Made by a program: the position numbers and the translations under genes
Notes under the pieces: generated by a model
Database searches by the model: none
Seen by the model: the letters and a program-made list of their open reading frames with translations, nothing else
What the model was told of the DNA's origin: nothing
Source of the DNA: a virus
Lineage: Duplodnaviria > Caudoviricetes
IMG/VR virus record: IMGVR_UViG_3300031953_000008
Span: 1 to 59,876 of that record
Reading direction: 5' to 3' (one strand)
DNA length: 59,876 nt
In this document: positions 3,942 to 53,241 of the stretch, piece by piece
Numbering within the stretch: position 1 is the first letter of the stretch
Layout: each line of letters starts with the position of its first letter

Positions 3942-4447
3942 CCTAAAATAATACCTATTAAATTACCAACAATCACTCCTGCCAATGCAGCTACCAATAA
4001 TAAACCACCTCTTAACTTTTGTATTAACGGGGCATTTTTGATAGTTTCATCAGGAGTCTGTCCAGTAACATATTCCCATTTTGTAGATAGTTCTTCAAGT
4101 TTATATTCCCAATTTGGGTACATTAGTTTTTTCTGGAAGATATGTCCTTTGTTTTTTAATCTCCATAATTGAGATTTCCAGTAATATTCCTGAGTTTCTA
4201 TTGAAGCACTCTCGGCAAATAAAAAATAAAGAAGGTATTCTAAAATGAATATCCAGAAAGGTGCTACTAGAATTTGATAAACGATTCCAAAGTATGCTCC
4301 TGTTTGGTGTTCGTATCCTGTTCCTATACCTCCCAAGAAGGTTGCAGCGATCATAAGCATTAAGAATACTTCGAGTTTTAATAGTTTTCCATTTTTAAAG
4401 GTGTAAAACCAGGAAGTTGAATTGATGTTGTAAAGAAACTTTCTCAT
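3938..4447 (-). CDS. Hypothetical membrane protein
   Basis: 169 aa, three hydrophobic segments, ATGA coupling. Confidence 0.7.
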   Translation of the reverse strand: MRKFLYNINSTSWFYTFKNGKLLKLEVFLMLMIAATFLGGIGTGYEHQTGAYFGIVYQILVAPFWIFILEYLLYFLFAESASIETQEYYWKSQLWRLKNKGHIFQKKLMYPNWEYKLEELSTKWEYVTGQTPDETIKNAPLIQKLRGGLLLVAALAGVIVGNLIGIILG

Positions 4448-23632: not shown

Positions 23633-24262
23633 TTATCCAACCGCTGCTGCAATCATTTCCTTATTTGCCGCGTCCCCTGCTTTGCTCACAGGTGGTTTTC
23701 CCGTTGCGGGTACACCATCTGCTCTGCTTTGTAAGTTCTCTTTGTGAATTTCCTCTAAATTAGATATCTGTTCTGCAACAGGGGTATCTGAATTTACATC
23801 GATCTGCCCGAAGTAGAAGTTTCCTCCTTTTTCGGTCAATGCTTTAAAGGTTTCATTTTTGTCGAACTCGGTACGGGCAGCCTGTGTTTTTGACTCGGTT
23901 ACTTTTCCTTCCTTCATTCCTTTGATATCATCCATCAGGGTCTTTGCCCAAGAAGGGACATCGTCTGCTGGTGGTACTGGTGGAATAGCGGCTGGAGGTG
24001 TAGTTGTGTCTGCTGGCGCTGGTGCTGGCTTCGCTTTTGCTTTGTTCTCAGCGGCTACCAAGCGGTGTTCGTCTTTGACCATATCGTCAAATGGGTACAC
24101 ATCATTGGCATCGTTGAGAATTAGGTCAATGGCCGAATCCTCTGCATCGTCAGCTAGTTTCTTGTTAAGTCTTGCCGTAATTTCGTCAAGCCTTTTTGTG
24201 GACAAGTCAGCTTTAAAGAGTTCTTTAAATCTGCCTTTTATCCTTGTTACTTCTACAGGCAT
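23633..24262 (-). CDS. Capsid scaffolding protein
   Basis: Pro/Ala-rich linker, DDVPSWAK motif, position. Confidence 0.75.
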   Translation of the reverse strand: MPVEVTRIKGRFKELFKADLSTKRLDEITARLNKKLADDAEDSAIDLILNDANDVYPFDDMVKDEHRLVAAENKAKAKPAPAPADTTTPPAAIPPVPPADDVPSWAKTLMDDIKGMKEGKVTESKTQAARTEFDKNETFKALTEKGGNFYFGQIDVNSDTPVAEQISNLEEIHKENLQSRADGVPATGKPPVSKAGDAANKEMIAAAVG

Positions 24263-24298: not shown

Positions 24299-24344
24299 CA
24301 AAGTTATATAAAATTTTCTTAAACAATAGATTTTTTTTATAATA
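24299..24344 (-). promoter_or_regulatory. Late promoter candidate for the head genes
   Basis: TAACTTTG -7 box (24299-24306) plus an upstream element nearly identical to 28394-28422. Confidence 0.6.
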
Positions 24345-24379
24345 ATTGTTTTATTGATAGATTTTTGTTATGGAATTAA

Positions 24380-26311: not shown

Positions 26312-27793
26312 TTACCAGTTAATACCGAGTTCTGCAAGTGTTTTCTTGGTTGTGTAAATTAAAGGCGAGGTGTGGAAAATATCGAAATACACCCTCATGA
26401 AGAGCGCATCCCTGTAATCAGGCGATCGTCCAATGTCTTGTTTTATTTCTGATTTCGGTTTGCAGTCCAGTTTCCCGTAATCACTCAACCGTGATTGTAT
26501 TTGGTCTAGTTCTGCTCTTATTTCCTCCTTGTTATCAGGCGTTAAATCACAATCAATCCAAAGCCCACCTTCGTTTATCTTATCAGCCAAATGATATAAA
26601 CACTGTACTTGCAGATTTCGGTAGTTTGGCATATCGCCATTCTCTTTTATAGCTGATGCGTTGTTTATAAATGGAAGGGCTCCTGTTTCATCTACGATTG
26701 ATCCTCCTATACCATCAGCATCTACTACGATATGATTCTTTGGTATTTGGTACTTTCTCCTGAATAAGTTTATCGTATAAGATATCTCCGTGGTAGCACT
26801 TGTGTCATAGGTTTTAATGTCGATAACCCTCCATCCTTTCCAAACCAAAATAACCGCTTTATCAGAACCCATTCTGGCAATATCGGCGGTGATGTAATGA
26901 ATGTCTTTTTCGTTGCCGACGTGATCGTTGTCAAATATCTGCTCGATCATCTGGTAGTCGCATAACGCATTTGGGTTTTCTTCGTAGTCCCAATTACCTT
27001 TAAATAGGCGCTCATAAAGTTGTTTATTCTTTTCGCCCATCCTGCGTAGTTTATCCACGTATTCCGGCTCAATGAACGGATTGTCAGTAACAAGCGAAGG
27101 CACGTAACATAAATTAGACGGTAAAGTGCCTCGTTTCCAAGGATCGTAAAAACGTGTTTTAACCCAATTCTTTTTTGGGTTGGTGGTCATTAGAATTGTG
27201 CCTTTCACCTTGTATTTTGAGTTCAGGTGACGCCCGACCCTTGATGATATAACGTTAATTCCCATTTCATTTTGCTCCGAAAGTTCCTCAGCCCATCCTC
27301 CCGTATATTCAGTGGATCCCAAATCTTCATACATAGGGTCGGATGGTTTGTATTTTAATTCTATAAAGTTGATATGGGAGGTGTTCCCTATTTGTATAAA
27401 ACTCTTTACAGCATTATACTTCCAGTCGGTGAACCCGTAGTATCTACACACCTTACTCCAAGTCACCAAAACAGAATCAACAATATCTTTCAATTCGTTA
27501 CGGGAAACAAACCATCGGGTTCCAGGGTAGTTGATACACATAAATAAAAGCCATACGCATCCAGCCCAACTCTTTCCATTACCTGCTGAACCACCCGCTA
27601 GAATTTCTTCGTATTGGTTAGACCAAAGTGCTTGCAGTACTTCCCTCATTTTATGGTGTTCTACATCTTCCCCAGCATCGTTCTTTCCTTTGACCACAAA
27701 ATCAAAATCGCCCTTTCTAAAAAGTTCTGCACGGATATCGATAGGTCTTAAACCATCTACGATTGTACTTAACTGTTTTGATGATTCACTCAT
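26312..27793 (-). CDS. terL: Terminase large subunit
   Basis: Walker A GGSAGNGKS, Walker B GGWAEE, motif TTNP, nuclease ADIARMGSD...DADG...SPDY.DA. Confidence 0.95.
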   Translation of the reverse strand: MSESSKQLSTIVDGLRPIDIRAELFRKGDFDFVVKGKNDAGEDVEHHKMREVLQALWSNQYEEILAGGSAGNGKSWAGCVWLLFMCINYPGTRWFVSRNELKDIVDSVLVTWSKVCRYYGFTDWKYNAVKSFIQIGNTSHINFIELKYKPSDPMYEDLGSTEYTGGWAEELSEQNEMGINVISSRVGRHLNSKYKVKGTILMTTNPKKNWVKTRFYDPWKRGTLPSNLCYVPSLVTDNPFIEPEYVDKLRRMGEKNKQLYERLFKGNWDYEENPNALCDYQMIEQIFDNDHVGNEKDIHYITADIARMGSDKAVILVWKGWRVIDIKTYDTSATTEISYTINLFRRKYQIPKNHIVVDADGIGGSIVDETGALPFINNASAIKENGDMPNYRNLQVQCLYHLADKINEGGLWIDCDLTPDNKEEIRAELDQIQSRLSDYGKLDCKPKSEIKQDIGRSPDYRDALFMRVYFDIFHTSPLIYTTKKTLAELGINW

Positions 27794-28374
27794 AAACTTA
27801 CTCCTTCTTGGTTAACGCCTTTTTCAATCCTTACGAAAGGCAAATTTTTAACCCTAATTCCTTTGAGTTGTTTTTCCAAACGACCAACTCCTACACAATG
27901 GGCGCGTGCTGCCTCAGCAATAGACTCATAGAATATTCCGGTTTCTTCATTCATCACCATCCATTTAACGGCGTTGAAACCAGTTTTTTGTTTCTTGTTG
28001 GTATTTTTGCATAGACCGCTTTGAAATGCGTGGATCATATTTTCTGAACGCGTGCAGTATTCAAGATTGCTTACTGAATTATTGGACTTATCGCCGTCAA
28101 TGTGATTGATGTCGTTTTTCAAGGGTCTTTCTCCGATAAATGCGTGAGCCACGACAATATGAACCATGGTCTTTTTGCATTTGCCGTCTTTATATAAGGA
28201 AATAGGACAATACCCAAATGTGCTTTGGTATTTAGCCATCATCTTTCCTTTCATATTCATATCTCCCTGCCCGTTACGAACAACAATTCTATCGCAACTT
28301 TGAACCCTTCCAAGATTGGAAACTTGGTAGAATCCCTCAAAATCAACAACGTCTTTCCAAATTTCAGTTTCCAT
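27790..28374 (-). mobile_element. NUMOD4-HNH homing endonuclease (NUMOD1-like C-terminus), coupled to terL
   Basis: EIWKDV..FEG.YQVSNLGRV; VHIVVA.AF...INHIDGDK.NN.VSNLE; YESIAEAAR. Confidence 0.9.
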
Positions 28375-28484
28375 AGTGTAAATGTATCAATAATTCTTTA
28401 ACAATAGATTTTATTTATAGTAGAATTGCGTTTTTGGGTAGAATATGATACCTATCTTGTATCTGGCAAGTGATTTTTAGGCAC

Positions 28485-28517
28485 AAAAAAAACCCGTAAG
28501 AACCTTAAACTTACGGG
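28485..28517 (-). terminator. Rho-independent terminator
   Basis: 8-bp perfect stem followed by T8. Confidence 0.85.
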
Positions 28518-28553
28518 CTAGAAACCTTAGAAATATGAAAGTAAAACATCAAG
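28485..28553 (-). ncRNA. Candidate sRNA antisense to the AACCTTA(A/G)A start-region motif
   Basis: TATATTTG box at 28558-28565; terminator CCCGTAAG/CTTACGGG + T8; loop TTTAAGGTT. Confidence 0.6.
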
Positions 28554-28587
28554 AGGTCAAATATAGGGATTATTTTTGAGAGTAAAT

Positions 28588-28827
28588 TTATTGTTTCTGT
28601 TTCAACGAAGGCTCCACGAACATTTCCATTAAATATTCCTTGATGTGAGGTTCCTGTTTTATGGAGAAACACTCTCCAGAGATGAATATATTGATCAGTT
28701 CTCCCAATTCTGTTTTGTTAGGGATGTACCAGCAGTCTATTTTTTCGGCATTGAAGTAGAAGTCCCTAAATTCTTCATCTTCATCATTGTCATCGGTGTA
28801 GGTAACGAGTTTTGCTTTTATTTTCAT
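28588..28827 (-). CDS. Hypothetical protein
   Basis: Start MKIKAK inside GCCCAATG. Confidence 0.6.
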   Translation of the reverse strand: MKIKAKLVTYTDDNDEDEEFRDFYFNAEKIDCWYIPNKTELGELINIFISGECFSIKQEPHIKEYLMEMFVEPSLKQKQ

Positions 28828-28986
28828 TGGGCTACTTTTTACGTTTCTTTTTCTTCGGCTGCAAATTCGTCTTGCGTTTCGGCTCGACATAACCGCTATG
28901 AAGTCTTTCTTGTTCCTGCTTATATTCTTCGATGGTCATTGGGGTTGTTGGACTCATAATTTAGTTTGCTAGTTTTAGGTCAATGT

Positions 28987-29133
28987 TTAAAAATCACGAT
29001 CTTCATCCTCTGGGTTTAGGTCAACTTCCAAATTACAGATCAGGTCATCCATAAAAGAAGCGTATTCATCGTCGGATAGTTCGTTTACATGTTCTATAAT
29101 GTGGTTGGTTGCGTGGCGCATTTTTCCTGTCAT
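28987..29133 (-). CDS. Small acidic protein
   Basis: Start MTGKMR inside CGCCCAATGA. Confidence 0.55.
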   Translation of the reverse strand: MTGKMRHATNHIIEHVNELSDDEYASFMDDLICNLEVDLNPEDEDRDF

Positions 29134-29258
29134 TGGGCGGATTTTAGGTAGTTGAAAACAATGTGGTGTTCGTTGGTCTTGACAATCTCGGCATTGAATT
29201 TCCAACGATTTGTTTTGTTTAACCAATCGATTGTTTTGTGCATCAGGATCAGTTTCAT
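29130..29258 (-). CDS. Small hypothetical protein
   Basis: MKLILMHK...YLKSAQ*, both ends in CAATGA junctions; not in the ORF track. Confidence 0.5.
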   Translation of the reverse strand: MKLILMHKTIDWLNKTNRWKFNAEIVKTNEHHIVFNYLKSAQ

Positions 29259-29503
29259 TGGTCGAAATATTCAAGTTGGATTTTGAACAAATCCGCTTTC
29301 TGGGTTTCAGAAACATATCCAGAGTAGTAGGAAAGCAGTTCGATGGCGTCGTTTATGGCAGAGGTGCGCATATCAGCCTTGTTCTTGTAGCCTTCGGTGG
29401 ATCGATAAGTGATGTTGGCGCTTCTGACTATTCGAATTTGGTGGTCGCCAGAGCTGTCCTTTAGTTCGGTTAAGCCTTCAGGGTATCGTGATTTTTTGCT
29501 CAT
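29255..29503 (-). CDS. YegP/DUF1508-like protein
   Basis: KDSSG...S.EGYKNK pattern. Confidence 0.55.
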   Translation of the reverse strand: MSKKSRYPEGLTELKDSSGDHQIRIVRSANITYRSTEGYKNKADMRTSAINDAIELLSYYSGYVSETQKADLFKIQLEYFDQ

Positions 29504-33922: not shown

Positions 33923-33934
33923 AGTTATTTAAGG

Positions 33935-34171
33935 TTAAAGTTCTCTCGCTTTTAGCATTGCATCTGCAATATCATAGCTATCTTTCGCTATTCGGTGAGT
34001 GTAAATAATATCTTCTTGCCCACTAAAAGTTGAACATATTCCTTGCATTGCCTTGGCTGCGAAGTAATCCCTTAAACTCATTCCTGATGGGTGATCTTCT
34101 TCTCGCATATTACCCCTCTCTATTGCGTAGCTTGCTAATGGAAATGCGTTAGGGTTTTTTGGTGTACTCAT
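33935..34171 (-). CDS. GM(S/T)LRDYFAAKA family protein; paralog of 48959-49198
   Basis: Near-identical N-terminal half to 48959; promoter box TATCTTTG at 34196-34203. Confidence 0.8.
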   Translation of the reverse strand: MSTPKNPNAFPLASYAIERGNMREEDHPSGMSLRDYFAAKAMQGICSTFSGQEDIIYTHRIAKDSYDIADAMLKAREL

Positions 34172-34414
34172 ATCATTTTCCTTTTAAGGTTCCCCCAAAG
34201 ATACACAAAAGTACATTGTGATTGACAAAGTCAAGAGGTTTATTTTATATGATGGGGAAATTAACTAAGGAAGCGGCTTAATAAAGGATTCTGCCACAAC
34301 CTTAACTAAGAGAAGTACTATTTGATTTTATTCTAATAAATATCGGTCATTGACCCGAAACCCGCTGTTCGTAAGGGCTGCTTATTTGATGGTTATTTGA
34401 TTCCCGCCCAATGC

Positions 34415-35969: not shown

Positions 35970-36502
35970 ATTATAGGTTTTAATTAATGTCAACCCAAAT
36001 GTACTACTTTATTCCTAAAGTCAACTCCCTTTTCCTATTTTCTTCCCGAAATTTTTTGGAGAAGCCTTTTTTAGAAAAGTCAACTTGGTGAATCTTTTGG
36101 AAAGTCAAATTGAAAAATTAAAAAGTCATTCTGACAAAGTGTTTCAGGGAAAAATTATTATATACAGTGGAATACTCCCATCTGCCCTGTGGCTGTAGGG
36201 GGTGTGCCCTCCTATCTATGCCAGTCGATAGCTTCTTGTTATGGGGTTATGGCCTTGTTATGTGGATCACTATAGCATCATAGACCTGTTATATGATAAG
36301 GCAGTAATACCAAGGGATTGCAGTATATTTTAAGCTATAGATTAAGCCTATTTATACTTTGTGCTATAACTTATATTATGTCAAATAGAACTTCATACTA
36401 TAGGCATCCTCTATTGATAGGTTGGGTTAGTGCTATCGTCGCTTAGAACGGCTTAAACTGGCTTTAATTTAAGCTATCAATTCTCCGCCAATGTTCAAAG
36501 GT

Positions 36503-37132
36503 TTAATTATTTTCAATACTATTTTGCTCTATTGTAGCGAGCAATGTGTTAAGTGTATCAGGGCTTGAATTCTTTAGTACGTTCAGGATATTGACTTTAG
36601 TAGCTTTTTGATCATTGTCTATTGAGTACATGCCTCGAAGCTTCGCAACCTCTTGCATCGCTCCCATGCTTGGCTTTAGCTTTACCTTTATCGTTGTCCC
36701 GGCTGGGTTGCCGTGCTTATCTACATGCTCGGTCATCTCATAGCTCTGTATCGTTCGCCTTATCTCTGCTGGTAGCTCCTTTATCTCCTGGGGTGTAAGT
36801 TCAATGAATCGCGTGATGTCACTGAATGCCCATTGTATAAGCTCCCTTTGTATATGCTCGCTCTTTATATCAGTCATAGCGCTGAGCCTTGTTTGGTGTT
36901 CCTCTATGTAAGCCTTGTTATGTGGACTGTTTTTAATTGCGTTCCACACAGTGGCCGAGCTGCTATTACTTAGATGTGGTCTGTACTCCTGGACTGCTAA
37001 TGGACCACTGAATCCGTTTGAGTAGAATTGCCCTATTATATCGCGGTGCTCTTGAATTACTTCCGGTGTTCGCCTGGTGGGTAATTTGTCCTTCTTTGGG
37101 GTCTTTTTATAGGTAGATTTTTTCTTTGTCAT
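36503..37132 (-). CDS. terS: Terminase small subunit
   Basis: I..E.I.REL..WAFSDI..F...IKVKL...AMQE.AKLRGMY pattern. Confidence 0.75.
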   Translation of the reverse strand: MTKKKSTYKKTPKKDKLPTRRTPEVIQEHRDIIGQFYSNGFSGPLAVQEYRPHLSNSSSATVWNAIKNSPHNKAYIEEHQTRLSAMTDIKSEHIQRELIQWAFSDITRFIELTPQEIKELPAEIRRTIQSYEMTEHVDKHGNPAGTTIKVKLKPSMGAMQEVAKLRGMYSIDNDQKATKVNILNVLKNSSPDTLNTLLATIEQNSIENN

Positions 37133-39317: not shown

Positions 39318-39357
39318 CAATTTTCGGCCAATGTTCAACAATAAAAAAACCTTAAAA

Positions 39358-39531
39358 ATGAGCAAAAAAATATATTCAACCGATAAAAACCTAAACTTTG
39401 GCAAAAGAAAAAGGATCATAAAACCCACAATTGAAACAAAAATAAACCGACTCAGGGCAAAAATGCCTGTCTGGGATGCAATAACCTTTGACTGTAAAAT
39501 GGCGCAAAAATACGGGCTTCAAATAGCCTAA
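39358..39531 (+). CDS. Small basic protein; paralog of 42529-42702
   Basis: KKIYSTDKNLN.GKRKRIIK...FDCKM.QKYG. Confidence 0.75.
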   Translation: MSKKIYSTDKNLNFGKRKRIIKPTIETKINRLRAKMPVWDAITFDCKMAQKYGLQIA

Positions 39532-39574
39532 AAAACTACTTTAAAACTCAATTAACAATTTAAAAATAAACATC

Positions 39575-40468
39575 ATGAAAACCTTTAAAAAAATATCAGA
39601 TTTAGAAATTACCGATTTTTTAACCTTAAACAGGTTTACAGAATCCTACAGGGGAATAAAACAAAGTGAGGGAGACTATAACCCATATTTGAGCCCGCGC
39701 GCTATTGATTTAAAAATACAACCCGATTATATAATAAATGACGCTATTCAGGACTTAAATATAATTTCTGAACGGGTTGTAAATTTTAACGCTCGCAAAG
39801 GTGCGCGGGTTGGGGATTATATAAGCCTGCCGGACGGTCAAATGGTTATTATCTCCCACAATTGGAACGAAAACCAAGTGCAAACAAGCGGCGGCGGATC
39901 AATGCATATGGGGCAAAGTGGTTTTTTAAGTTTCTCCGGTGGGATGGATAGCGGCTTAAAAGAAACTGATTTAATACCGACAAAAGAAACAAAAAAAGGT
40001 ACTATTTGGATTTTTCACGGTGGATTTAGCGGGGGCAATCGCGGGGTATATTCAAAAATAAACTTTAGAGTATTTAAAACAAGGCCGGGTGCGGATCTTT
40101 CGGGAATCCCACAAATATCGGCATTAAAAAAACAGAAATTAATTGAAAAAAGCGAAACAATTACCCGCATAAACGGAAACGGGAACGAATACACAATGCA
40201 CATGCCCGAAATTATGATCGTGGAACCGCATGACAGTTACAAAGATAAATTTGTAAAATTCAATACCTTCACTTTAGCAGGGTTAAAATTTAAAATAACT
40301 CACTGGAACATTGCCGCATCTCAGCCAATGACAAGGAAACAAATTAATGACATGTTAAAAATGTATGCTTTTAAAGGTACATTTTACAACAATGCCAACA
40401 ATAAAAACCAACTTTTTTTGGAAGCAACAACCCCGGACGACTTTAACAGAATCTTAGAATTAAAATAA
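39575..40468 (+). CDS. Hypothetical early protein (Gly-rich beta domain)
   Basis: 297 aa; RVGDYI...GGSMH...SFSGG. Confidence 0.8.
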   Translation: MKTFKKISDLEITDFLTLNRFTESYRGIKQSEGDYNPYLSPRAIDLKIQPDYIINDAIQDLNIISERVVNFNARKGARVGDYISLPDGQMVIISHNWNENQVQTSGGGSMHMGQSGFLSFSGGMDSGLKETDLIPTKETKKGTIWIFHGGFSGGNRGVYSKINFRVFKTRPGADLSGIPQISALKKQKLIEKSETITRINGNGNEYTMHMPEIMIVEPHDSYKDKFVKFNTFTLAGLKFKITHWNIAASQPMTRKQINDMLKMYAFKGTFYNNANNKNQLFLEATTPDDFNRILELK

Positions 40469-41325
40469 AATTAATCAGGAGGTTAAAATCCCCCTTTAAA
40501 CCTTACAAAATGAAAGTTAAAAAAGTGCATATTTCAACAATTAAAAGCGGTGATACCATTATTCATTTAGGGATAATTACAACCGTTTGCAATAACAATA
40601 TTAAAGGCGGCGGTTTTATGGGTGTTTCTTTGTTTGGGGACTCCTACAATTTAGGCCGCCAATTAGTTGAAAAAGTAATAATTTAAAACCTTATAAAATG
40701 AAATACGCAATAGAACAATTAAGAAGAAACGCGGCAAATTACAATACCTCCAAACATTTAAAAGATTTGGCGAATGATTGTAAAAACGCGTCCAATTATC
40801 TTGAAGATAAAAAGTTTAATCATTTTACAGTCGGTTTTATGATCGCCGAATTAAGCGAAATAAAAGCGGCCATTGTTAGCGGCCTTAATGGATGGGGCGA
40901 CAATTACCCGGAACAGAAAAAACGCCAGGAGAAGAAGTTAAAAGAAGTAACCGAAGCGATTGAAAAACTTAAAAATTACTAAAATGAAAACTACAATACA
41001 CTCAAACGGGTCAAAATGGAACGGGCAAGAACCTGACTCAATCGACTTTTTAATAAATGAAAGACTGAATAAATACACAATAGAAGAACGGTTTTTTTCA
41101 TTTTACGAAGAAACAACAAAAGAAAAGGGAAAAACAAAAGTTAATTTTTGCCCTATCACAGAAAAAGAAACGCACGTTAATTTCTTCGGTAATTTCGAGG
41201 AATATAGTCATGTATTTAGAATTGATACGGACGATCCTGAAATAATCAAAAAACTAACTCAGGCCATTAAAAACAATAAAGGATGGCTAAAATATTATAA
41301 TAAAAACCTATTAAAATAAAACATC

Positions 41326-41835
41326 ATGGAAGCTGAAATATTAGAACAAGAAGAAGCGCAAATTTTTGAAAGTTTGGAAGATCTGGATTTTAAAATTGAC
41401 TGCCTGAAGGATAAACTTTTAAAGATCAACAAGGCATCAAATTTTACGGACTCCCTTAACGATAGTTTTTACATGGGGCGCGTTGGATTTATGGGTAAAA
41501 AAGCGAACGCGAAGAAGGAAAGAGAACTAAATAAATTTATCGACTCCTGCAATAGCGAGCGAAAAATAAACGCGGAAATTTCAACCCTTGAAAAACGAAT
41601 TTCTAAATTAAAAACAGGCTATTATTTGATCAGGAAAAATAACTTATTGGTTGATTCCTATAAATGCCTAACAGAAAAACGCGAAGCATTTGAAACGATT
41701 TTAAAAAGCAATTTGCTGAAAGGAAAACCATTAACGGAAGAAAATAAAAGCATTGTTAAGGACTTAAAAAGAGAAAACCTAGCAAAGATACGGAAAACAG
41801 AAAAACAATATAAAACAACACTTTTAACCGCTTAA
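41326..41835 (+). CDS. Coiled-coil hypothetical protein
   Basis: 169 aa. Confidence 0.7.
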   Translation: MEAEILEQEEAQIFESLEDLDFKIDCLKDKLLKINKASNFTDSLNDSFYMGRVGFMGKKANAKKERELNKFIDSCNSERKINAEISTLEKRISKLKTGYYLIRKNNLLVDSYKCLTEKREAFETILKSNLLKGKPLTEENKSIVKDLKRENLAKIRKTEKQYKTTLLTA

Positions 41836-42528
41836 AACCCTTAAAATCTCCGGTCTAATTCCTTGAAAACAAAGGAAGGTTTGAAAGTTGAACTTTTGAC
41901 CGGAAACAACTTTAAAAATAAACATTAATTAAAAACCTTAAATTATGAAAACTCAAAAAATCCACATCTTTAAAAAATTGCAGTTTGGTACATTGGCTTT
42001 TGTTGCCTGTTACTTTGTTGCGCACTTGCTTTCTGCTTTGTTTTTTCTTTAGTCCGCTTATCATTGGCGGGAAACTGCCAAAACAACCTTAAAACCTATT
42101 AAAAACCTTTAAAATATACGATTATGGAAAATGTAAAATCAGCTCCGATAAATTACCCATGTGTTATGTTTGAGAAAAAAGACACTATAGGGATCAGCTT
42201 AACTGAAAAAGACTTAATGAAAAAATTTGCTCTAATAAATAATGTAGATGAGTATTTTACAAAAAAAGCAAGTTTTGAAAATCCTGTTATCTGCCATTAT
42301 TACTCTGTAATAAATGAAGCGTTAAGAATAAACAAAATGCTATAAATAAAAAACCTTAAAAATTATTGTTATGTGGAAAATAAAAACCTTTAAAACCTTG
42401 AAAGAGTTAAACAGGTTTAAAGATGCAAATAAAAATAAATTTCAGATGGTAGAGGTATTTTTAAATAACTCTTTTGGACTGGATTGTAAAAAACTTAAAA
42501 AAATAACCTTTTAAAAACCTTAGAAAAA

Positions 42529-42702
42529 ATGACCAAAAAAATATATTCCACCGATAAAAATTTGAATTACGGAAAAAGAAAGAGGATCATAAAAGCGACT
42601 GCCGAAATAAAAACGAACGCGTTAAAATCCACCTTTAGCACGTGGGAAAAAATCGTATTCGACTGTAAAATGGGGCAAAAATACGGCTTTCAACAGGCTT
42701 AA
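42529..42702 (+). CDS. Paralog of 39358-39531
   Basis: 57 aa MTKKIYSTDKNLNYGKRKRIIK...FDCKMGQKYGFQQA*, not in the ORF track. Confidence 0.75.
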   Translation: MTKKIYSTDKNLNYGKRKRIIKATAEIKTNALKSTFSTWEKIVFDCKMGQKYGFQQA

Positions 42703-45431
42703 AACTGAATTAAAAACCTAAAAATACAAGGAAATGAAAACAATAATAATTTTAGCTTCCACGAAAAAAGAAGCCTTAGAAATTGCGAACAGGGAAACAG
42801 AAAAATTAGAGTTTCAGTCTGTTTATAAATACAGTAAAGGAAAAGGAAATAATTTTTATCAATTTGTAATAAACCCATAAAAATATGGATATCTCGGTAA
42901 AAAAAGGGCATTTGACCCAAACGGAAAAAACCCACATTAAGGCTATTTTAGACGCCAATTTAAAAAGTGGTAAGATAGGGCGAAAAACATATTTTCTGTC
43001 CTTAAAAAATGACTTGTACACCGTAAAAATACGCCAAATGGGGCGCGGGCTTGGCTTTATAGGTTCTGAATTAAAAGAAGAAACAAACACACACCAATTC
43101 ACAATTTAAAAAATAAAATCATGGCAAATATAACAATAGAAAAAATCAGGCAATTACCTAAAGGTTTTCAAGAAAGCATTATTGAAAGAAGTCAGATAAA
43201 AGCGGCAATTTCAAACGCAAACCAGTTTAAAACCTATGCGAGATACTGCGCAAAAAAACACAAAGAATATCCCGGGCAATCCTGGGATATAGTTGGGGCA
43301 AATTCATTGATGCCTTATTATGAAAAACTTTTATCGGTTGAAGAATTGGCCAATAAATATAAAGAATTATGGGGCGAAAACTTTTATAAATGCAAGCTCC
43401 AATGCGAAAAAATACTATCAATTTAAAAACCCTTAAAAATGATCATAGATGCACAAATAAGAAGTTTACAGAACTTCGCAGACAACTTTGAATTGACCGT
43501 AAAATACTATCAATTTGATGATTTAAGAAAAAGAACAAAATTCATCCTTGTAAAAAATACCACTTCAATAACGCAACCTTTGAGTTATGAAGAAATGAAT
43601 ATTTTTTTACTGGGGATTAAAAGATGTAAGGAATTTAATATCTAAAATAAAAACCTCCCACCAATGAACAAAACAATTCAACATTTAAAAAATGGCGATT
43701 TTAAAACAGTAAACGCCGAAAATAAAAAGGAAATTATGAAAAGGAAATTTACAAAAGGTGATATGGTTGGGTGGAAATCCAATACTGAATTTACTAAAGA
43801 AAATAAAAACAAACCCGCGCAAAGAGTAATTGACTATAAAAAATGTATTGATGGCGAAGGGTGGGAATATAGAATAACAAATTGCATGGGATGGCAAATG
43901 CAGCACGAACTTGAAAACAGAATTTAAAAAACCTTAAAAAATGGAAGCACAAACAATCACAAACGCGATAAATTACGAACGTTTAAGGGAATTTGAAACC
44001 AAATTGCAAGGGGTTGAGTCTCTTTTGGTAGAAATGTACCCCGATGATTTTAAGGGGCAGAAAACCCTAGAAAAAAAGGTACGAAAAGCCCTGCAAACCG
44101 TTTGGGATATGCGAAGGGATTACGACGTTAAAAAACTAATGGAGAATAAAAAAGTACAAATTTAAAAAACCAAAAAATGGAAATCTTATCTGAAAAAATT
44201 AAAAAGAAATTCGACTACAACGGCATTGAATTAAAAATAGTGGAACGTGAGGAATACTATTTAAACTCAGGAGAAACAATGAAAATGATTCGAGTAATTG
44301 CACCAAGCGGGGGCGTGATCCCTGTAAAAATACGGCATAAACAAACCTTAAAAAGCATTATAGAAGATACTATTGAAACCCTTGATAATTTCAATAGTGT
44401 TGGTATGGATGTAAAAAACGAACTAACAAAAACAACGATTTAAAACAATAACCAATGGGAAATAAAAAAGGATTATTCAAAATGTTCACCAGCCTGTTCT
44501 CGGCCAATGAAACAAGTAAATTACCAACAGTAGAGGAAGCACTAAACAAATTAAAACGACGGGACGAAGCCGCAAAGGTACGCCAAAAACGAAATCAAGG
44601 ACTCACACGGTACTTTTTCGATAAGAACCACCTTTGGGCTTTGAACGAAAAGAACGCCACGGAAAAAGCCTTAAAATTGGGATGGATCAAACCACTTAAA
44701 AAATAGTTATGAAAAAAATAGCAATTATAGGATGTTCAAATTTAGGAACTTCAATGATAAAAAAATTAGAAATGGAAAGGGGAATTAAAATCGTGGAAGC
44801 GGAAAAACAAAACCCTTTTGATCCTGAGCCAATGTTGTTTACAAATCCTTATGTGGATATAGCCGACAACTTATTGGACGAAAAAATAATAACCAAAAAT
44901 TATTACCCGAACAAGGGTTCTAAATACCACAAATAAAAAGATGGACTTACGAGGAAATTCACGCAAAAACACATTGATAGCACTTGGCTGTCTTATTCTC
45001 TCGATGCTCGCTGGCATTGGCGGGATTCTACTGGTTATTTCTTAAAATAAAACGAACATTACTTGTATATTAATACAAAGTAAACTAAATTGGACACAAA
45101 TTAGAAACTTAGATTATGAAAACACCTAAACAAATAAAAGCAGAAATCTTAAATTGCACAGAAGAAATAAATTTCCTAAAGAAAGAAGCTGAAAGAGGAT
45201 ATATAAATTACGATATTAAGATTGGACAAGTAGAAGTCAAGAGTTTAGCTTTACAATGGACACTAAAACCCGCCAAATGAAACCCGATAAAAAAAACGTC
45301 TTTGAAACGGTTTTCCAGCCTAAAATAAAAAAAATGAGCCAATGGTATTCAGATAAAATAAACGACGGAATAGGGAAATGGCTCAAAGCAACTGGAACAA
45401 ATGAATAATTAAAACCTTAAAACCTTAGAAA

Positions 45432-45701
45432 ATGAAAACAATAAAAATACAGGTAATGGAAACCACCACCACTAAAAAAGAAGTGGAATTTGAAATCCCT
45501 TGTTTCAGAAAAGATGGAGTGCGATATTATAAGGTGCTCGACGAAAATAAAGCTATTGAAGTAGTTTTATTTAAGGCGTATAATGATTATATCTTACAAT
45601 CAAATACAGCCGAATCAGCTTTTAGGGACGGCTCAGAACCTTGCACCGAGGAAGAATTTAACACCGCTTTCGCCACTGCAATTAAAAACCTATCGATATG
45701 A
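45432..45701 (+). CDS. Hypothetical protein
   Basis: 89 aa; tandem AAAACCTTAAAACCTTAGAAAATG leader. Confidence 0.7.
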   Translation: MKTIKIQVMETTTTKKEVEFEIPCFRKDGVRYYKVLDENKAIEVVLFKAYNDYILQSNTAESAFRDGSEPCTEEEFNTAFATAIKNLSI

Positions 45702-45915
45702 AACACCACCGAACAGGAACAACGACCGTTGACCTTCAATTTGAAATGTGCGATGTATTAGAAATAGTGGTCGAGGAACTAAAAACCTTCAACAAAGACA
45801 ACCCGGACGATGATGAACTGCGGGAAAAATACGAAGGAGTACAAAAACAACTCAACCAGGCACTTCGCAGTATCATAGAAATCGAAATGTTCAACCTAAG
45901 TAAAAAACGAAAGAA

Positions 45916-46281
45916 ATGAGAACAATAAAATTCAGAGGAAAAAGAATTGACAATAGAGAATGGGTTTACGGTTTTTTAGTAAAAGACCCACAAGAAAAAT
46001 ATAGAATTTACTACCAACCATTTGAGGAGGCCACAAGTAATACATATCATTTTGTTGATCCTGAAACAGTAGGTCAGTACATAGGTAAAATTAAAACTGA
46101 ACAAGAAATTTACATTAACGACCTCGTTCAACACGGTGAAACTGTCAGAATTGTTGAATATAGAAATGGAAATACTTGCTTAATTAGGCAAAATAAACAA
46201 GACTCTATTTTATTGTCTTTTTCAGAAAACCCTAAAAAAGTGGGGAACATTTTTGATAACCCAGAACTTTTAACACCTTAA
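45916..46281 (+). CDS. YopX-family protein
   Basis: MRTIKFRGKRID..EWVYG...V.PETVGQY.G...VGNIFDNPELL. Confidence 0.9.
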   Translation: MRTIKFRGKRIDNREWVYGFLVKDPQEKYRIYYQPFEEATSNTYHFVDPETVGQYIGKIKTEQEIYINDLVQHGETVRIVEYRNGNTCLIRQNKQDSILLSFSENPKKVGNIFDNPELLTP

Positions 46282-47598
46282 AGCAATGAAACTCCACATA
46301 AAAATAAAAAACGGGCATTGGACGGTGAACGGTAAAAAATTTAACGAACTCGGTATGATGGAAACCGATTTTATGAACCGTTATTTTCAGGAGGTAAAAC
46401 TGAATAATGAATTAAAAAAACTTTAAAAAATGGACTACTCAAACATCAAAACAAGTACCGCAATGAATAAGTCGGTTAAAGAACAATTATTGCTCAGGGA
46501 TGACCACCTTTCCAAATACGCCGCAAAGCGAATTGAGGAATTAGAGATAGTTGCATCGCTAGCGTATGCAGCAATTAGGCATAATCCAGAACCATCTAGA
46601 TCTGAATTAAATGCTTATTTTGAATTAGAAAAAAATATTTAATTATGAATTACGAAAACATCGACAATATTGTAGTGAGCAAAACACCATCAGACGATCA
46701 GTGGGTAGAATCTGCTGACCGAAATGGAAAACCAATGGCACAGGAGGAAATCAACGCCCTGACCAATGAACAGCATTATGAACTGATCCTCAAATCAAGG
46801 GGGATATTGCAATAACCTAAAACCTTTAATTATGAAATTATTTGAATTAAGACCAAGAAAAGATTTACTTAAAAACGACAACCCATGGGAGCCTTGGTAC
46901 GATAAAACTTTTGGGTTTGTTGTTCGGGCAAAAACAGCCCAAAAAGCCAGAGAATATGCAGACGAGTACTCAAGTGAAGAAAATGATGGAGGTAAAAATC
47001 CTTGGTTACATGAAAAATATTCCACTTGTAATGAACTCACTAGAAACGGTGATGAATGTATAATTATGGCAGATACTCATTCCGCTTAACTAACAACTAA
47101 AAAAAAATAAAAAATGAACGTATATGTAGTAATAGATTTGGAACGCTTGGGAAAAGTAACCGACACCCCAAGTACTTACGGAAGTTTAAAAGAACTTGTT
47201 TCGGCCAATATCGAGGACAAAGGTAAAATCCTAACTTATTCAGGTCTATGGGAAAGGCTCTCTAAGAACTCAGATGTGCATTATTGGCGGAGCGAGAGGT
47301 ACATCATAAAACAATGTGAGGTACAACGCAGTAAACAGAAAAACCCTAAAAAGTAAGATATGGCACGATTAGACAAAGAAAGGCAAGATAAATTAGAGCC
47401 TAAAAGGAAAGATTTAGCATTGGGCAGAATCAAGGAATTGGGATTAGAAATACTTTTAGTAACCGATTCGAGAATTGATTTTCTGTTCAATGACAATAAA
47501 ATTTCTTACTATCCCTATTCAGGATGGCATACAGGAAAAGGAATTAGGGATGGTAGGGGATGGAGCAATTTAAAAAATCAATTAACAACTTAGAAATT

Positions 47599-47970
47599 AT
47601 GAAAAATCCAGGATTAGCACATAAAATGCCAGACGGGAGTCTTTTCTTGACGTACAAAGGTCTTTTGGAATTAGCGGACAGAAGCGGTAAATTTAAAGAG
47701 CATTTTGTCACCGAGGTAAAAATAGATGATGAAGTTAAAGGGTTTCTTTCTTATTTTAAATTGATCAGTGGTGAGGAACAATATTTATTTATGACCGTTG
47801 CCGAGATTACTGATCGGGTCAATAAAACAAACAAATCCTTTAACGAAGGGAAAGGTGTTTGGGTAGATTACTTTAATATTATGGCTTCAAAAATGGTTCA
47901 CAAAATGAATTTATTGAACCCCAAAAACAAATCACACGATATAATAATGAACGAATTAACAACTAAATAA
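47599..47970 (+). CDS. Short RecT-core paralog
   Basis: YKGLLELADRSGKFK, W...F..MA.K.V align with the adjacent RecT. Confidence 0.65.
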   Translation: MKNPGLAHKMPDGSLFLTYKGLLELADRSGKFKEHFVTEVKIDDEVKGFLSYFKLISGEEQYLFMTVAEITDRVNKTNKSFNEGKGVWVDYFNIMASKMVHKMNLLNPKNKSHDIIMNELTTK

Positions 47971-47978
47971 AAATAATT

Positions 47979-48947
47979 ATGGCAGACATTGTAAAAACAA
48001 CATCAGTAAAAAGTATTCTGGAATCTGAAAATGTAAAAGGTAGGCTTCAAGAAATACTTGGGAAAAATGCGGCGACTTTCGCAACTTCTGTAATACAGAT
48101 AGCGCAAACTCCTGCATTATCAAAATGCGAACCCGCCTCCATAGTTGGAGCCGCAATGACCGCAGCCACCTTGAATTTACCTATAAATAATATGCTTGGG
48201 TATAGTTATATTATACCTTTTGGGACTAAAGCCACCTACCAAATTGGGGTTAAAGGGTACGTACAATTGGCGCAGCGTTCCGGCCAATTCAAATTTTTAA
48301 AAACATCCGATGTTAAAGAAGGTGAAATGATCCACAGAAACCGATTGACAGGACAAATAGATTGGGATTGGATTCAGGACGACAAAGAACGCGCAAATAA
48401 AAAAACAATCGGTTACGTGGCGTTTATGAGCCTTATCAATGGATATGAAGATACGCATTATATGAGCCTTGATGAAGTCCAAGCGCACGGGAAAAAGTAT
48501 TCTCAAATGTACAAGAGAAATTCAGGTTTATGGGTTACAGAGTTTGATCTTATGGCTGAAAAAACGGTTTTAAAATTACTATTAAGCAAAAAAGCACCAC
48601 TTTCAACCGAGCTTCAAATCGCAGTAAGGAACGACCAAGCCGCGGTCAATGACCCCGAAAACATAGAAGATATTTCTTATTTGGACAATGAAGAACTTGA
48701 ACCCGAAGTCGACCACGAAGCAGAACGTCAGGCAGATGTAATGACCAATTTAAAAACAAGGGAAGATTTCGATTATGCGATAGGGGTTGTTGATAAAGAG
48801 GATTTGGTAAAAGAACTTCATTTGCAGATCGTGGCATTTGTCAGTGATGAAGAAAGCCTTATTTGGGCAAAAGAAATCGTAACAGATGAAGTCGCCAAGG
48901 CTAATCTGAAACTGAAAGAAATAAAAATCAAAAAAGAACTTAAATAA
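47979..48947 (+). CDS. recT: RecT-family single-strand annealing protein
   Basis: SIVGAAM.AA.LNL...LGYSYIIPF, KGYVQLAQRSGQ, W..EFD.MAEKTVLK. Confidence 0.92.
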   Translation: MADIVKTTSVKSILESENVKGRLQEILGKNAATFATSVIQIAQTPALSKCEPASIVGAAMTAATLNLPINNMLGYSYIIPFGTKATYQIGVKGYVQLAQRSGQFKFLKTSDVKEGEMIHRNRLTGQIDWDWIQDDKERANKKTIGYVAFMSLINGYEDTHYMSLDEVQAHGKKYSQMYKRNSGLWVTEFDLMAEKTVLKLLLSKKAPLSTELQIAVRNDQAAVNDPENIEDISYLDNEELEPEVDHEAERQADVMTNLKTREDFDYAIGVVDKEDLVKELHLQIVAFVSDEESLIWAKEIVTDEVAKANLKLKEIKIKKELK

Positions 48948-48958
48948 AAACCTGAATT

Positions 48959-49198
48959 ATGAGTGAAACTAAAAACCCAAACGCATTTCCATTATCAAGT
49001 TATGCTATTGAAAGAGGTGCTGTGCGAGAAGAAGATCACCCCTCAGGAATGACCCTTCGCGATTACTTCGCAGCTAAAGCATTGGCCGGGATTTTATCGG
49101 GAAATGAAATCATACGAACAGGCAAGAAAACAAGTAGTTCAATCGCATCATACGCATACTCAATAGCCGATGCAATGCTAAAACAACGAGAACTATGA
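48959..49198 (+). CDS. GMTLRDYFAAKA family protein
   Basis: Paralog of 33935-34171. Confidence 0.8.
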   Translation: MSETKNPNAFPLSSYAIERGAVREEDHPSGMTLRDYFAAKALAGILSGNEIIRTGKKTSSSIASYAYSIADAMLKQREL

Positions 49199-49649
49199 GC
49201 GTAAAATCCCCCTCAATGACCCACGCACAACGGACAATAATCATTGCCAAGGTGTGTAAATTATACAACGCAAGGGCAAAGAATATGACCTCGCCCACCC
49301 ATAAAACAAGGGAAGAAAAAGCACAACTTGAAGCGTTTTTGCGTGCCCAATGCCTATCGGAAGGACTTATTTACATTGGGATGAAACACATATTACTTAT
49401 TAACTATTAAAAATTATGGAAACGATACATCAAATTATACAGGAAAGTGTCAGTGGCGGATTTTGGAAGTTCGTAGGCTATTGGCTTATGGTTGCCCTTA
49501 TACTCGTAATACCCGCCCAAGTGATATTTATTGCCATCAACAGACCGCTCAGGCATTGGAATATCAGAAAACACGGTTATCCACCTGCTCATTGTGATGC
49601 GGATGGCGATTTTAAAAAAGATGAAGATTAACTATTAAACCTTAAAACA

Positions 49650-50642
49650 ATGAGAAAAATAGATTGGGACAAATACCGCTTTAGGTGCTCACAGTTATCG
49701 CTTATTATGGGCGGAAATATCGGGCTCACTGAAAAACAACTCTCCGATATGGAGGAGTTGAAAAACGAAAAGAAAACAGGGGTAAACATCAATAATAATA
49801 AAATAAAATGGACGGATGCAAAGGAAGAAAAACTTTCCGCCTTTATAAAAACCCACGAAGAACAAGAATTGCCTAAAGGGATGCAGACTGAATTACGTAA
49901 GATTTTCAGGGCAGAATCCGAGGACAGGAACTTCGTTATGACCACAAAATATTTGGTTAAGGGGTTACAACAGGAAGAAGAAAGTATCACTCTGTACCAA
50001 CAATACCGAAACTCAAATGGCATCAGAACGTATTTTAAAAAGAACGATGTGCGTTTGTACAATGAGTACCTTTCGGGAGAACCAGATATAAACCCACTTA
50101 TAGCAGAAATAGAGGGGGTCAACAAGAAAATCGGATTTGATACAAAAACCGCTTGGGAGTTAAAGACGATGCCTTTTCCTGACGACGCATTGTCAAAACC
50201 GAACGATTGGCAGAACCACGGCTATATCTTTTTGACAGGGGCGGATGAATGGTGGACGGTGAACGCTTTGGTAAACGCTACGGAAGATGCAGTTTTTAAG
50301 GAAAAACAAAAACATTACTTTGCCTTAAAAACGAAAGATCGTATGCCTGATGAAGAAGGAAGCAAATACTACGATGAGTACATTCGGTTGTGTCGGGATA
50401 TCGAGAAAATGATGATTTTTGATTATGACCGATTTGTAGATCAAAACGCGCATATTATGGAAATACAAAAAGAAGAATGGCACAGAAACCAATGGGATAT
50501 CATTATGAGCAGAAGAATTGTCGAGCGAGCCACCTATTATTCTGCTAAAAAACAACAAGAAATAATCGACCGTGTGCTTATCGGAAGAAAATATTTTAAA
50601 CAACTTCAATCACAAATAGACAGCCAAAAACTTTTGGTTTAA
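49650..50642 (+). CDS. Lambda-exo/YqaJ-like exonuclease
   Basis: FRCSQL, TKYL.KG...EE, SGEPD...DTKT (PD-D/ExK), WQ..GY. Confidence 0.75.
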   Translation: MRKIDWDKYRFRCSQLSLIMGGNIGLTEKQLSDMEELKNEKKTGVNINNNKIKWTDAKEEKLSAFIKTHEEQELPKGMQTELRKIFRAESEDRNFVMTTKYLVKGLQQEEESITLYQQYRNSNGIRTYFKKNDVRLYNEYLSGEPDINPLIAEIEGVNKKIGFDTKTAWELKTMPFPDDALSKPNDWQNHGYIFLTGADEWWTVNALVNATEDAVFKEKQKHYFALKTKDRMPDEEGSKYYDEYIRLCRDIEKMMIFDYDRFVDQNAHIMEIQKEEWHRNQWDIIMSRRIVERATYYSAKKQQEIIDRVLIGRKYFKQLQSQIDSQKLLV

Positions 50643-50953
50643 CGGAAAAATTAATGTCAATCTAAAAACGTAATTTTATGAACATTTTGAAACTATCAGA
50701 CGACAAAGAAAATCTTGAAGCCGACATCAGGCTTTTAATAATGGATTTTACGAACAAATATCCCGAAGTGGATTTAGAAATGAAAATAAGTAAACAATTT
50801 GAAACAATTGTAAACGGTATAGTAAACACAAGGGTTTTAACCCATATAGATGTAAAATTAAACGCAAAAATAATAATTTAATAAACGCTTCTAAATATCT
50901 TCTATTGGCAATAATTTATTACCTTTGGTAAATAATCTAAACAACAATATATT

Positions 50954-51241
50954 ATGGACTTAGGTAAATCAATTAAAATAATTAGAAAAGAAGGAGGGTT
51001 TAAACAAAATGAATTTTGCGAATTAGTAGGAATCACACAAAGTTATTTATCCTCCATTGAGAACAACAAAAAGAAACCGAGTATCGAGGTTCTTGAAAAA
51101 ATCACTAATGCTCTTAATATTCCTTTAGCGTTATTATTCTGGTTTACATTGACCGAAGATGATATTACAGAAAGCAAAAAAGAATCTTACAGATTAATAA
51201 AGCCGTCTATTGATGGATTGCTTAATGCTTTTTTTAATTGA
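50954..51241 (+). CDS. XRE-family HTH regulator
   Basis: IRKE.G.KQNEF.ELVGITQSYLSSIENNKKKPS; own TACCTTTG box. Confidence 0.9.
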   Translation: MDLGKSIKIIRKEGGFKQNEFCELVGITQSYLSSIENNKKKPSIEVLEKITNALNIPLALLFWFTLTEDDITESKKESYRLIKPSIDGLLNAFFN

Positions 51242-51246
51242 TTATT

Positions 51247-51708
51247 ATGGAAAGAATAGATAAAATTCATTTAGCGATTAAAAAAGGTATTACATACAAT
51301 CCATTAAGTGGAGAAATAATTGGTGTTAAGGGAAAGGTGTTAAAAGCAAAGGATAATCAAGGATATATTTACTTTGGTATTTGGGAAAATAACGTAACAT
51401 ACCGTCTTTATGGACATCAATTTGCTTGGTATTCGGTATATGGAGAATTGGTTAATACTTTAGACCATATAAACAGAATAAAAACAGATAATAGAATATC
51501 AAACTTAAGAGAAGCTAGCCGACAATTAAATGGATTGAATAGGGATTCTAAAGGATATTCTTTTGATAAAAATTCTAATAAGTTTATTTCTCAAATAATG
51601 GTTGATGGTAAAAATATCCATTTAGGAAGATATAACACATCAGCAGAAGCAGAAATAGCATATCAACAAAAGAAATTTAAATTAATAAGTAAAATAGTAA
51701 AACTATAA
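51247..51708 (+). mobile_element. HNH-AP2 homing endonuclease
   Basis: HQFAW...LDHINRIKTDNRISNLR; HLGRY.T..EA..AY. Confidence 0.88.
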
Positions 51709-51711
51709 ACT

Positions 51712-52023
51712 ATGACAATAGACGTAACAATTGAGAGTATCGGAGAAATTAACACTTACGGTGCAAACGGATTCAGAAAACGTGAAATGGTCGCATTGAC
51801 CCAAGAAGGAGAATATGCACAGCCTTTAATATTTGAGTTTGTTCAGGATAAATGCGAATTACTGGATAGTTTTTTGCCCGGTGAAGATGTTTCAATAGAT
51901 TTCAACTTGAAAGGAAATAGATGGCAACCAGAGGGAAAACCTGAACGTATATTTATATCAATTCAGGGATGGCGCATTGAGAAAAAACCATTGTCAGCGG
52001 CAGACCAATACGACCAAAAGTAA
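51712..52023 (+). CDS. DUF3127-like OB-fold (SSB-like) protein
   Basis: GF.KRE...EY.Q...FEF.QDK...G.V.I.FNL.G..W...F.SIQGWRI. Confidence 0.8.
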   Translation: MTIDVTIESIGEINTYGANGFRKREMVALTQEGEYAQPLIFEFVQDKCELLDSFLPGEDVSIDFNLKGNRWQPEGKPERIFISIQGWRIEKKPLSAADQYDQK

Positions 52024-52078
52024 ATAACAATATTACCAAGTGCCCTTAACCGAGGGATTCATTTAAAAACCCTCCTAA

Positions 52079-52705
52079 ATGGATTTTCCAAAATTAAAAA
52101 TCAAAACCTGTAAATGGTGCAAAGAAAAATACCAACCCACTAAACCACTTCAAATGGTCTGCTCTCCTAAATGCGCCTATGAATACACACAGGACGCACG
52201 GAAAAAGAAAGCTAAAAAGGATTGGAAAGTGGAAAAAGAGGAAATCAAAAAAGACATCACCAACTGGAAGAACAATCTCCAAACCGAAATTCAAAAGATA
52301 GCGAGGTATATAGACCATGGTCTTTTATGCTTGGCAAGGAACCAAAAAGGACAGATTCACGGGGGGCACGTATTCAGCAAAAAAAACAACCCGAACATTC
52401 GTTTTGACCTCAATAATATTCATCGCCAGTCAGCCCAATCGAATAAATGGGAACAGGATGACTCCTTGATACGTGAGAAATTGGTCGAAGAATACGGTCA
52501 GGAATACTACGACGGTCTGCTCGAAGCAAAAAACCACCGAGAACAGGTTAAATATGTAAATATCCAGTACCACGCATTTTATCTGAAAGCCCGAAAAATT
52601 TCCAATGCCCTTAAAAAAGAAAACGACAATCTTTTAGAGCCTCGAAGCGTGAAACAGCGGATAAAATTAAGAGAAGAAATCAACAACCAATTAGGAATTT
52701 ATTAA
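52079..52705 (+). CDS. NinG/Rap-like recombination nuclease
   Basis: CKWC...P...Q.VCS.KCA; HGGH.FS...RFDL.NIH.Q. Confidence 0.75.
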   Translation: MDFPKLKIKTCKWCKEKYQPTKPLQMVCSPKCAYEYTQDARKKKAKKDWKVEKEEIKKDITNWKNNLQTEIQKIARYIDHGLLCLARNQKGQIHGGHVFSKKNNPNIRFDLNNIHRQSAQSNKWEQDDSLIREKLVEEYGQEYYDGLLEAKNHREQVKYVNIQYHAFYLKARKISNALKKENDNLLEPRSVKQRIKLREEINNQLGIY

Positions 52706-53106: not shown

Positions 53107-53241
53107 CGCCTATTGTAAATGTCGGTAGCGTATATCCACGACATTGATGTCGGGAACATACCGTCAAAACGCTATTGCATTTACAAGATGTTATGTGGTT
53201 AAAAAACATTAAAGTAATATTTAAACCTTAAAAACTAAATT

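Follow-up and report, generated by a model that had tools for sequence, protein, structure and literature searches.

OxyS of Escherichia coli is a host stress sRNA that has its own mapped promoter and depends on Hfq, the c4 RNA of phages P1 and P7 acts through two short complementary sites, and for the enterobacterial 3'-UTR-derived sRNAs CpxQ, DapZ and SroC the regulatory RNA shares the terminator of an mRNA. The terminator loop of OxyS is described as forming a kissing complex with the initiation region of fhlA, with a second OxyS site pairing nearby (PMC11979758). For P1 and P7, c4 is presented as a phage small antisense RNA that blocks downstream genes via a binding site in the mRNA (PMC8198154). 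The translational repressor RegA and the endoribonuclease RegB of phage T4 are described as inactivating many early mRNAs via a short sequence shared by their initiation regions (PMC3014915).

We analysed a candidate RNA element in the genome of an uncultured phage that resembles each of these systems in part. As in the OxyS/fhlA pair of E. coli, a terminator loop and a second site are set against a start region; in contrast to OxyS, the element would be one phage RNA with an uncertain promoter and ~20-37 candidate targets that have one common tag. Like c4, it would be a phage-encoded small antisense RNA, but c4 addresses a single operon (icd and ant) for immunity, whereas the candidate targets here are scattered over two genome arms. 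The likeness to RegA and RegB lies in a phage factor, many early mRNAs and a short common start-region sequence; the T4 effectors are proteins, while the candidate effector here is an RNA and the tag is not a Shine-Dalgarno (SD) sequence. Finally, as with CpxQ, DapZ and SroC, a candidate regulatory RNA and an mRNA share one terminator, with the differences that the element described here is known from sequence alone and that the host phylum, Bacteroidota, is not known to encode Hfq.

The window, that is, the whole stretch of DNA analysed, is the virus record IMGVR_UViG_3300031953_000008 at its full length (59,876 bases, estimated completeness 100%), and is a complete uncultured Bacteroidota-type phage. 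The DNA runs containing the phage carry the label brine metagenome. Its large terminase (TerL) shares 50% identity with those of the Polaribacter phages P12002L and P12002S and 56% with a copy from an Aequorivita MAG, and the remaining genome matches are nearly all to Bacteroidota. No integrase or repressor family was found among 20 proteins compared with PHROGs. Minus-strand genes run from ~37132 down to 19162 and from 16554 down to 950, and plus-strand genes from ~37885 to the genome end. The block at 950-28374 contains terL and the large structural ORFs. The right arm (37885-59876, plus strand) encodes RecT, an exonuclease, a DnaD-like loader, NinG and methyltransferases, and was assigned to the early or middle class because of these genes.

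Around terL, several features were recorded in their own right. A small-terminase-like ORF at 36503-37132 on the minus strand (Pfam Terminase_2, E = 3e-7) lies ~9 kb from terL, with some twenty small genes between. The terL of the window has neither an intein nor a homing-endonuclease domain and stands just downstream of a free-standing NUMOD4-HNH gene, and several TerL relatives (L121, at 555-3083; P0008, P0012, P0017 and P0056) are 800-850 aa long with intein or homing-endonuclease domains (PF14528, PF14890). Four DNA runs covering 27600-29400 yielded contig pieces identical to the window, with zero variants. In run X4, a contig at 27930-28441, comprising the N-terminal part of the HNH gene and the region upstream, had a depth of 13 compared with 31-34 in its flanks, and the right-hand contig of that run continued, left of 28449, into sequence unlike the window. 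A sub-population seems to be without the 27930-28449 segment or to carry a replacement, with the terminator element in the shared part.

The element combines a terminator with two sequences complementary to a leader tag, AACCTTA, found before many start codons of the genome; we refer to these complements as anti-leaders.

28485-28519, minus strand: intrinsic terminator, with a stem, a 9-nt loop and U8 at 28485-28492
28522-28540, minus strand: upstream anti-leader UUUCAUAUUUCUAAGGUUU, the complement of leader motif, spacer, AUG and AAA, 13 nt upstream of the loop copy

The perfect 8-bp terminator with U8 reported in the initial annotation is present at 28485-28517 on the minus strand. Its stem, CCCGTAAG/CTTACGGG, occupies 28510-28517 and 28493-28500 (RNA arms CCCGUAAG and CUUACGGG) and encloses the loop at 28501-28509, UUUAAGGUU, whose 9 nt are the exact complement of AACCUUAAA. 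That the loop is an exact anti-motif and that the unpaired 5' part carries an anti-leader as well had also been claimed, and both copies are real: the plus strand at 28522-28540 reads AAACCTTAGAAATATGAAA, a complete leader with ATG and AAA over 19 nt. In the predicted fold of a 68-nt RNA, the hairpin grows to 10 bp and the first 33 nt are unpaired (-13.8 kcal/mol, z = -2.5, equalled by 4 of 200 shuffles). The upstream anti-leader is predicted to be unpaired in this form and to be partly paired, with the coding-region sequence GGAGCCUU close to the ORF end, in a 136-nt 3'-UTR form, the loop still being exposed. A strict genome-wide scan for a perfect stem followed by a T run returned six hairpins; those at 28485-28517 and 19671 are the only intergenic ones in the minus-strand blocks. 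The terminator stands 71 nt past the stop codon, at 28588, of a co-oriented ORF; next come a promoter-like block that is found repeated, the HNH gene and terL. Its assignment as an intrinsic terminator, predicted from a GC-rich stem-loop and U tract at an operon boundary, is secure.

Of the four AACCTTA copies that are antisense to the local genes, two lie 22 nt apart within this terminator element, and the sole antisense copy of the 9-mer exactly fills the terminator loop. Joint placement of both anti-leaders by chance is very unlikely, at an estimated rate of roughly <1e-5 per genome that would still be small allowing for the many windows scanned, the element having been picked from many windows screened for exactly such patterns. 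Judged from its sequence, the arrangement of the anti-leaders is real and not random. A third copy in antisense orientation, an 8-mer of the tag, is present at 34298-34305 on the minus strand (TTAAGGTT), in the spacer between a terminator-like hairpin (34445-34424) and the promoter at 34203, and is in no obvious hairpin loop.

Searching the whole window with Rfam at gathering score gave 0 matches. At E values up to 10, three sub-threshold sRNA-like matches appeared, the best of which was RybB (RF00110) at 28484-28550 on the minus strand (model positions 1-79; 22.2 bits where the gathering score is 40; E = 0.024 for 351 bases). RybB and the element have in common a 5' seed followed by a terminator, but with a score under the gathering threshold the element is not a member of that family.

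The position of the element with respect to operons bears on what it could do.

28588-28890, minus strand: last ORF of the upstream operon, with a likely start at 28827 after AGCCCAATGA; its 3' UTR holds the element
28558-28565, minus strand: putative Bacteroidota -7 box TATATTTG, from which an RNA of about 62-68 nt would result
34196-34240, minus strand: host-type promoter TTGACTTTG ... TATCTTTGGGGG, directly before a AACCTTAAA leader
28394-28440, minus strand: promoter-like block of ~35 nt, AATCTATTGTTWAAGAA, just downstream of the terminator; repeated at 24316-24345 (minus strand), upstream of the late gene 23633-24262

The initial annotation had placed the element at the entry to the late operon. 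We found instead that it closes an early/middle operon that probably starts at the host-type promoter near 34200. Between ~34200 and 28588 this operon consists of small genes, many of them chained by ATGA overlaps, and the sequence at 34196-34240 is the probable promoter for the transcript ending at the 28485 terminator. A second minus-strand promoter at 35996-36030 (near 36003) has TTGACTTT(G/A) ... TAnnTTTGGG in common with it, and the two are probably strong host-RNA-polymerase promoters of the minus-strand early/middle block. The block at 28394-28440 could serve the HNH gene and terL as a late promoter or regulator site. Since the element is outside the late operon, it has no built-in early-to-late timing; its RNA would be produced alongside the targets, a situation suggestive of delayed negative feedback and not of a switch triggered late.

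A dedicated promoter for the element had been proposed from the -7 box. The box TATATTTG is there, but it is weak evidence for a promoter: TAnnTTTG occurs 68 times genome-wide compared with 81 expected, so that a -7 box by itself carries little weight, and a -33 TTTG was not found 17-23 nt upstream of 28558-28565.

The leader tag occurs in both candidate target regions.

39348-55334, plus strand: right-arm early or middle region, with AACCTTAAA at 39348, 41934, 42085, 42352, 43930, 45413, 49638, 52716, 53224, 54437 and 55326, plus AACCTTA variants
33928-33936 and 34183-34191, minus strand: exact AACCTTAAA leaders of the first genes of the operon ending at the terminator

In total, AACCTTAAA is found in 16 exact copies where 1.92 are expected, a number reached by 0 of 100 shuffles. 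All 13 coordinates previously reported for it are occupied by the motif; the accompanying statement that it stands shortly before start codons fails at 42085, where the next ATG is 39 nt away. Two exact copies that had not been listed, at 39622 and 44344, both lie inside ORFs. Relative to the local genes, the shorter AACCTTA has 26 copies in the coding sense and 4 in antisense, where 5.8 +/- 2.3 would be expected on each strand. Followed by a spacer and a start codon (AACCTTA-N3-12-ATG) it is found 20 times, 18 of them in the coding sense and two antisense (28523 and 35793), and the ORFs opening at the coding-sense ATGs encode 30-330 aa. With ORFs called crudely at a minimum length of 40 aa, AACCTTA is present in the 30 nt upstream of 3/22 minus-strand early or middle genes, 10/59 right-arm genes and 0/33 late genes, in line with the initial observation that head, tail and terL leaders largely lack the motif. 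The data support a genuine leader motif with specificity for genes of the early or middle class.

TAAGGTT and AAGGTT were both absent from the 16S genes of two genomes, one Tenacibaculum and one Putridiphycobacter, which served as Flavobacteriia stand-ins for the host; SD-like pairing of the tag with 16S rRNA is therefore not supported. Flavobacterium ribosomes are described as ignoring SD sequences, with A-rich positions upstream of the AUG tuning initiation (PMC6847099; PMC7797042). The A-rich flanks of the tag fit this published picture, and the CC core is a feature of this phage alone.

Other features of the leaders were noted. The sense strand of the right arm (37885-59876, plus strand) is without the anti-tag TAAGGTT, which is consistent with avoidance of self-pairing but not significant, because only ~2 copies are expected. 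Paralogous 57-aa genes at 39358-39531 and 42529-42702 on the plus strand (MSKKIYSTDKNLNFGKRKRIIK.. and MTKKIYSTDKNLNYGKRKRIIK..) each follow an AACCTTA leader. Another start-site motif, CGCCCAATGA, matches 32 times at up to one mismatch (3.0 expected), including 10 exact copies, and is placed where stop and start codons of chained small genes overlap (ATGA); its sites include 17157, 17937, 18607, 18770 and 54354 on the plus strand and 29130, 30547, 31059, 31241 and 53032 on the minus strand. The same word also precedes an ORF boundary in L121, a 76% TerL relative, at about 389-398, and it may be a termination-reinitiation signal.

Predicted pairing of the element with all start regions, compared with shuffled controls as had been proposed, exceeds what composition explains. 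The 22-nt 5' part reaches -9 kcal/mol or better at 37 of 130 start regions, against a shuffle mean of 11.3 and a maximum of 31 (0/200 shuffles reach 37), and the loop segment does so at 44 of 130, against a shuffle mean of 22.3 (7/200 reach 44); these duplex energies leave out accessibility, any U-rich RNA pairs with A-rich leaders, and a 9-nt loop cannot pair along its entire length. Seed-level tests were used because ranking of whole-RNA duplexes, whose energies are inflated by long interior loops, did not discriminate. When 26,956 68-nt windows were ranked by complementarity to start regions, with windows overlapping annotated start regions left out, the element took rank 25-30 (top 0.1%) at word sizes 7 and 8 and rank 62 at word size 9. 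This ranking used GC-containing words only, since a k-mer scan without a complexity filter had been swamped by poly-A/T. Those of the higher-ranked windows that were listed all lie in the right arm, the named ones opposite leaders of small ORFs, near 39348 and 41934, that the crude calls had missed. Complementarity of the element to start regions above the composition expectation is supported by these predictions.

The best predicted target lies in the right arm.

45413-45438, plus strand: tandem leader AACCTTAAAACCTTAGAAAATGAAA / AACCTTAAAACCTTAGAAAATG of the 89-aa gene at 45432-45701

The duplex suggested for this start region in the initial annotation, 18 bp with one bulge and with the AUG covered, was recovered at -19.0 kcal/mol. 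It makes 45432 the best partner of the 5' part, spans -13 to +6 and leaves the terminator hairpin folded. The two tags of the tandem leader match both anti-tags in colinear antiparallel order, and the leader fits best because both sites could pair colinearly. The gene encodes a viral hypothetical protein of 89 aa that falls into no Pfam or PHROG family; in the Atlas it matches viral hypothetical clusters only.

Taken as a whole, these features lead us to favour, tentatively and at a little under an even chance, a terminator whose RNA also acts by base-pairing as an anti-leader and occludes translation. The hairpin and U8 at 28485-28519 (minus strand) would end the early/middle operon begun near 34200, and the RNA closed in this way would be the operon 3' UTR, a processed 3' fragment or a separate ~65-nt transcript from the 28558 box. 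It would show two anti-leaders, one in the 9-nt loop and one in the unpaired stretch 13 nt upstream, which would pair with the AACCUUA(A) tag located 3-12 nt before the AUG of about 20-37 early/middle mRNAs. Such pairing would hide the ribosome landing site and the AUG, and in an SD-less Bacteroidota host the translation or stability of the message would fall as the RNA accumulates. Within this scheme we infer the stable RNA species, the pairing in vivo and the direction of the effect. The stronger proposal, an RNA counterpart of T4 RegA in which a two-seed phage RNA at the early-operon 3' end silences ~20-37 early/middle genes sharing an SD substitute, is rather unlikely.

A simpler reading is that of a plain intrinsic terminator with no regulatory role, its anti-leaders being a by-product, for example the relic of an inverted leader copy such as that of 45432, and its tag being read by a protein or the ribosome. 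We regard this as quite possible, if on balance doubtful. Terminator function requires nothing beyond the features present, there is no significant promoter, and in T4 the early start regions are described as being under the proteins RegA and RegB (PMC3014915). Comparison with relatives of up to 76% TerL identity points the same way, as neither the element nor the tag was found in them and they manage with generic A-rich leaders.

For this comparison, TerL was aligned with 80 IMG/VR loci and 80 metagenome loci (best identity 76%); the closest TerL proteins in a separate protein comparison were 68-69% identical. No anti-leader was found in L121 and L165, the closest loci with upstream sequence (76% and 72% TerL identity), in which the genes upstream of terL differ. 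Across 32 loci, the 1.5 kb upstream of terL contained unrelated terminators or none, and terminator loops of relatives were mostly 3-7 nt and unrelated. AACCTTA was at control level in five relatives with 51-61% TerL identity (three near-complete, two partial), and in three relatives compared whole, the enriched leader words were generic A-rich k-mers only. An IMG/VR scan for TAAGGTT..TTTAAGGTT..TTTTTT returned 23 stretches, none of them homologous, with the hairpin of the element or from a leader-enriched genome. Searches by neighbouring proteins gave seven loci with the HNH protein, none syntenic, and no loci with TerL alone or with the 100-aa upstream ORF; relatives of RecT were only 38% identical, and the 45432 protein had one 21-residue match.

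One of the relatives contained a feature of similar kind. In G001 (L111, a 60% TerL relative), a terminator loop at ~3995-4024 on the minus strand, UAGUUUU, is the complement of a weak leader word, AAAACUA. This is a faint parallel only, because AAAACUA is common there (31 and 23 copies, compared with ~14 expected per strand).

Set against a plain terminator is the arrangement of the anti-leaders themselves: chance is very unlikely when the sole antisense 9-mer fills the loop and a second copy, of 19 nt, lies 13 nt off. A relic would leave the perfect 8-bp arms around the motif unexplained, and the order of the two copies agrees with the tandem leader of 45432.

A base-pairing role could also be confined to one operon, the 3'-end anti-leaders pairing with the AACCUUAAA leaders (34183, 33928 and 33706) of their own mRNA; the icaR 3' UTR reportedly pairs with its own 5' UTR in this manner. 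The loop is indeed predicted to pair best (-13.1 kcal/mol) with the 34183 leader, which precedes 33935-34171 and would open the transcript that the 34203 promoter is predicted to give. Against this, the longer seed has its best partner, 45432, in the other arm, and the two ends are ~5.7 kb apart. Action in cis only is very improbable.

The opposite strand offers a further candidate.

28535-28579, plus strand: 14-aa ORF MKVKHQEVKYRDYF, behind the leader-like AAACCTTAGAAATATGAAA

The initial annotation had raised, as an alternative, a cis-antisense RNA to this ORF. The plus strand would then be the functional one, with a leader-like sequence driving a micro-ORF or a plus-strand RNA showing the tag in a hairpin loop, and the minus-strand RNA acting as in a type I toxin-antitoxin pair. 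Type I toxins are small and hydrophobic. AAACCTTAGAAATATGAAA, with its 5-nt spacer, has the full appearance of a true gene start, and ORFs of 30-35 aa with the same leader exist elsewhere in the genome, but this alternative is weak and the least probable of those considered: the nearest upstream plus-strand TAnnTTTG is at 28002 (none within about 480 nt), the site is deep within a minus-strand block, the peptide MKVKHQEVKYRDYF is 14 aa, charged, hydrophilic and unlike type I toxins, the plus-strand fold is unremarkable (z = -1.6), and no small hydrophobic toxin ORF with its own promoter is found at 28535-28579.

If the favoured reading, a terminator that doubles as an anti-leader RNA, holds, a single small phage RNA would govern a whole temporal gene class via a common start-site tag, a job that T4 does with proteins and that would be done here with RNA. 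If it does not, the leader tag remains a clear signal of the early class. How Bacteroidota select start sites without Shine-Dalgarno pairing is described as still being worked out (PMC6847099; PMC7797042). With the loop (9 nt), the seed (19 nt) and the leader all defined, the pair can be tested, and it may offer a handle for programmable silencing in Bacteroidota phages.
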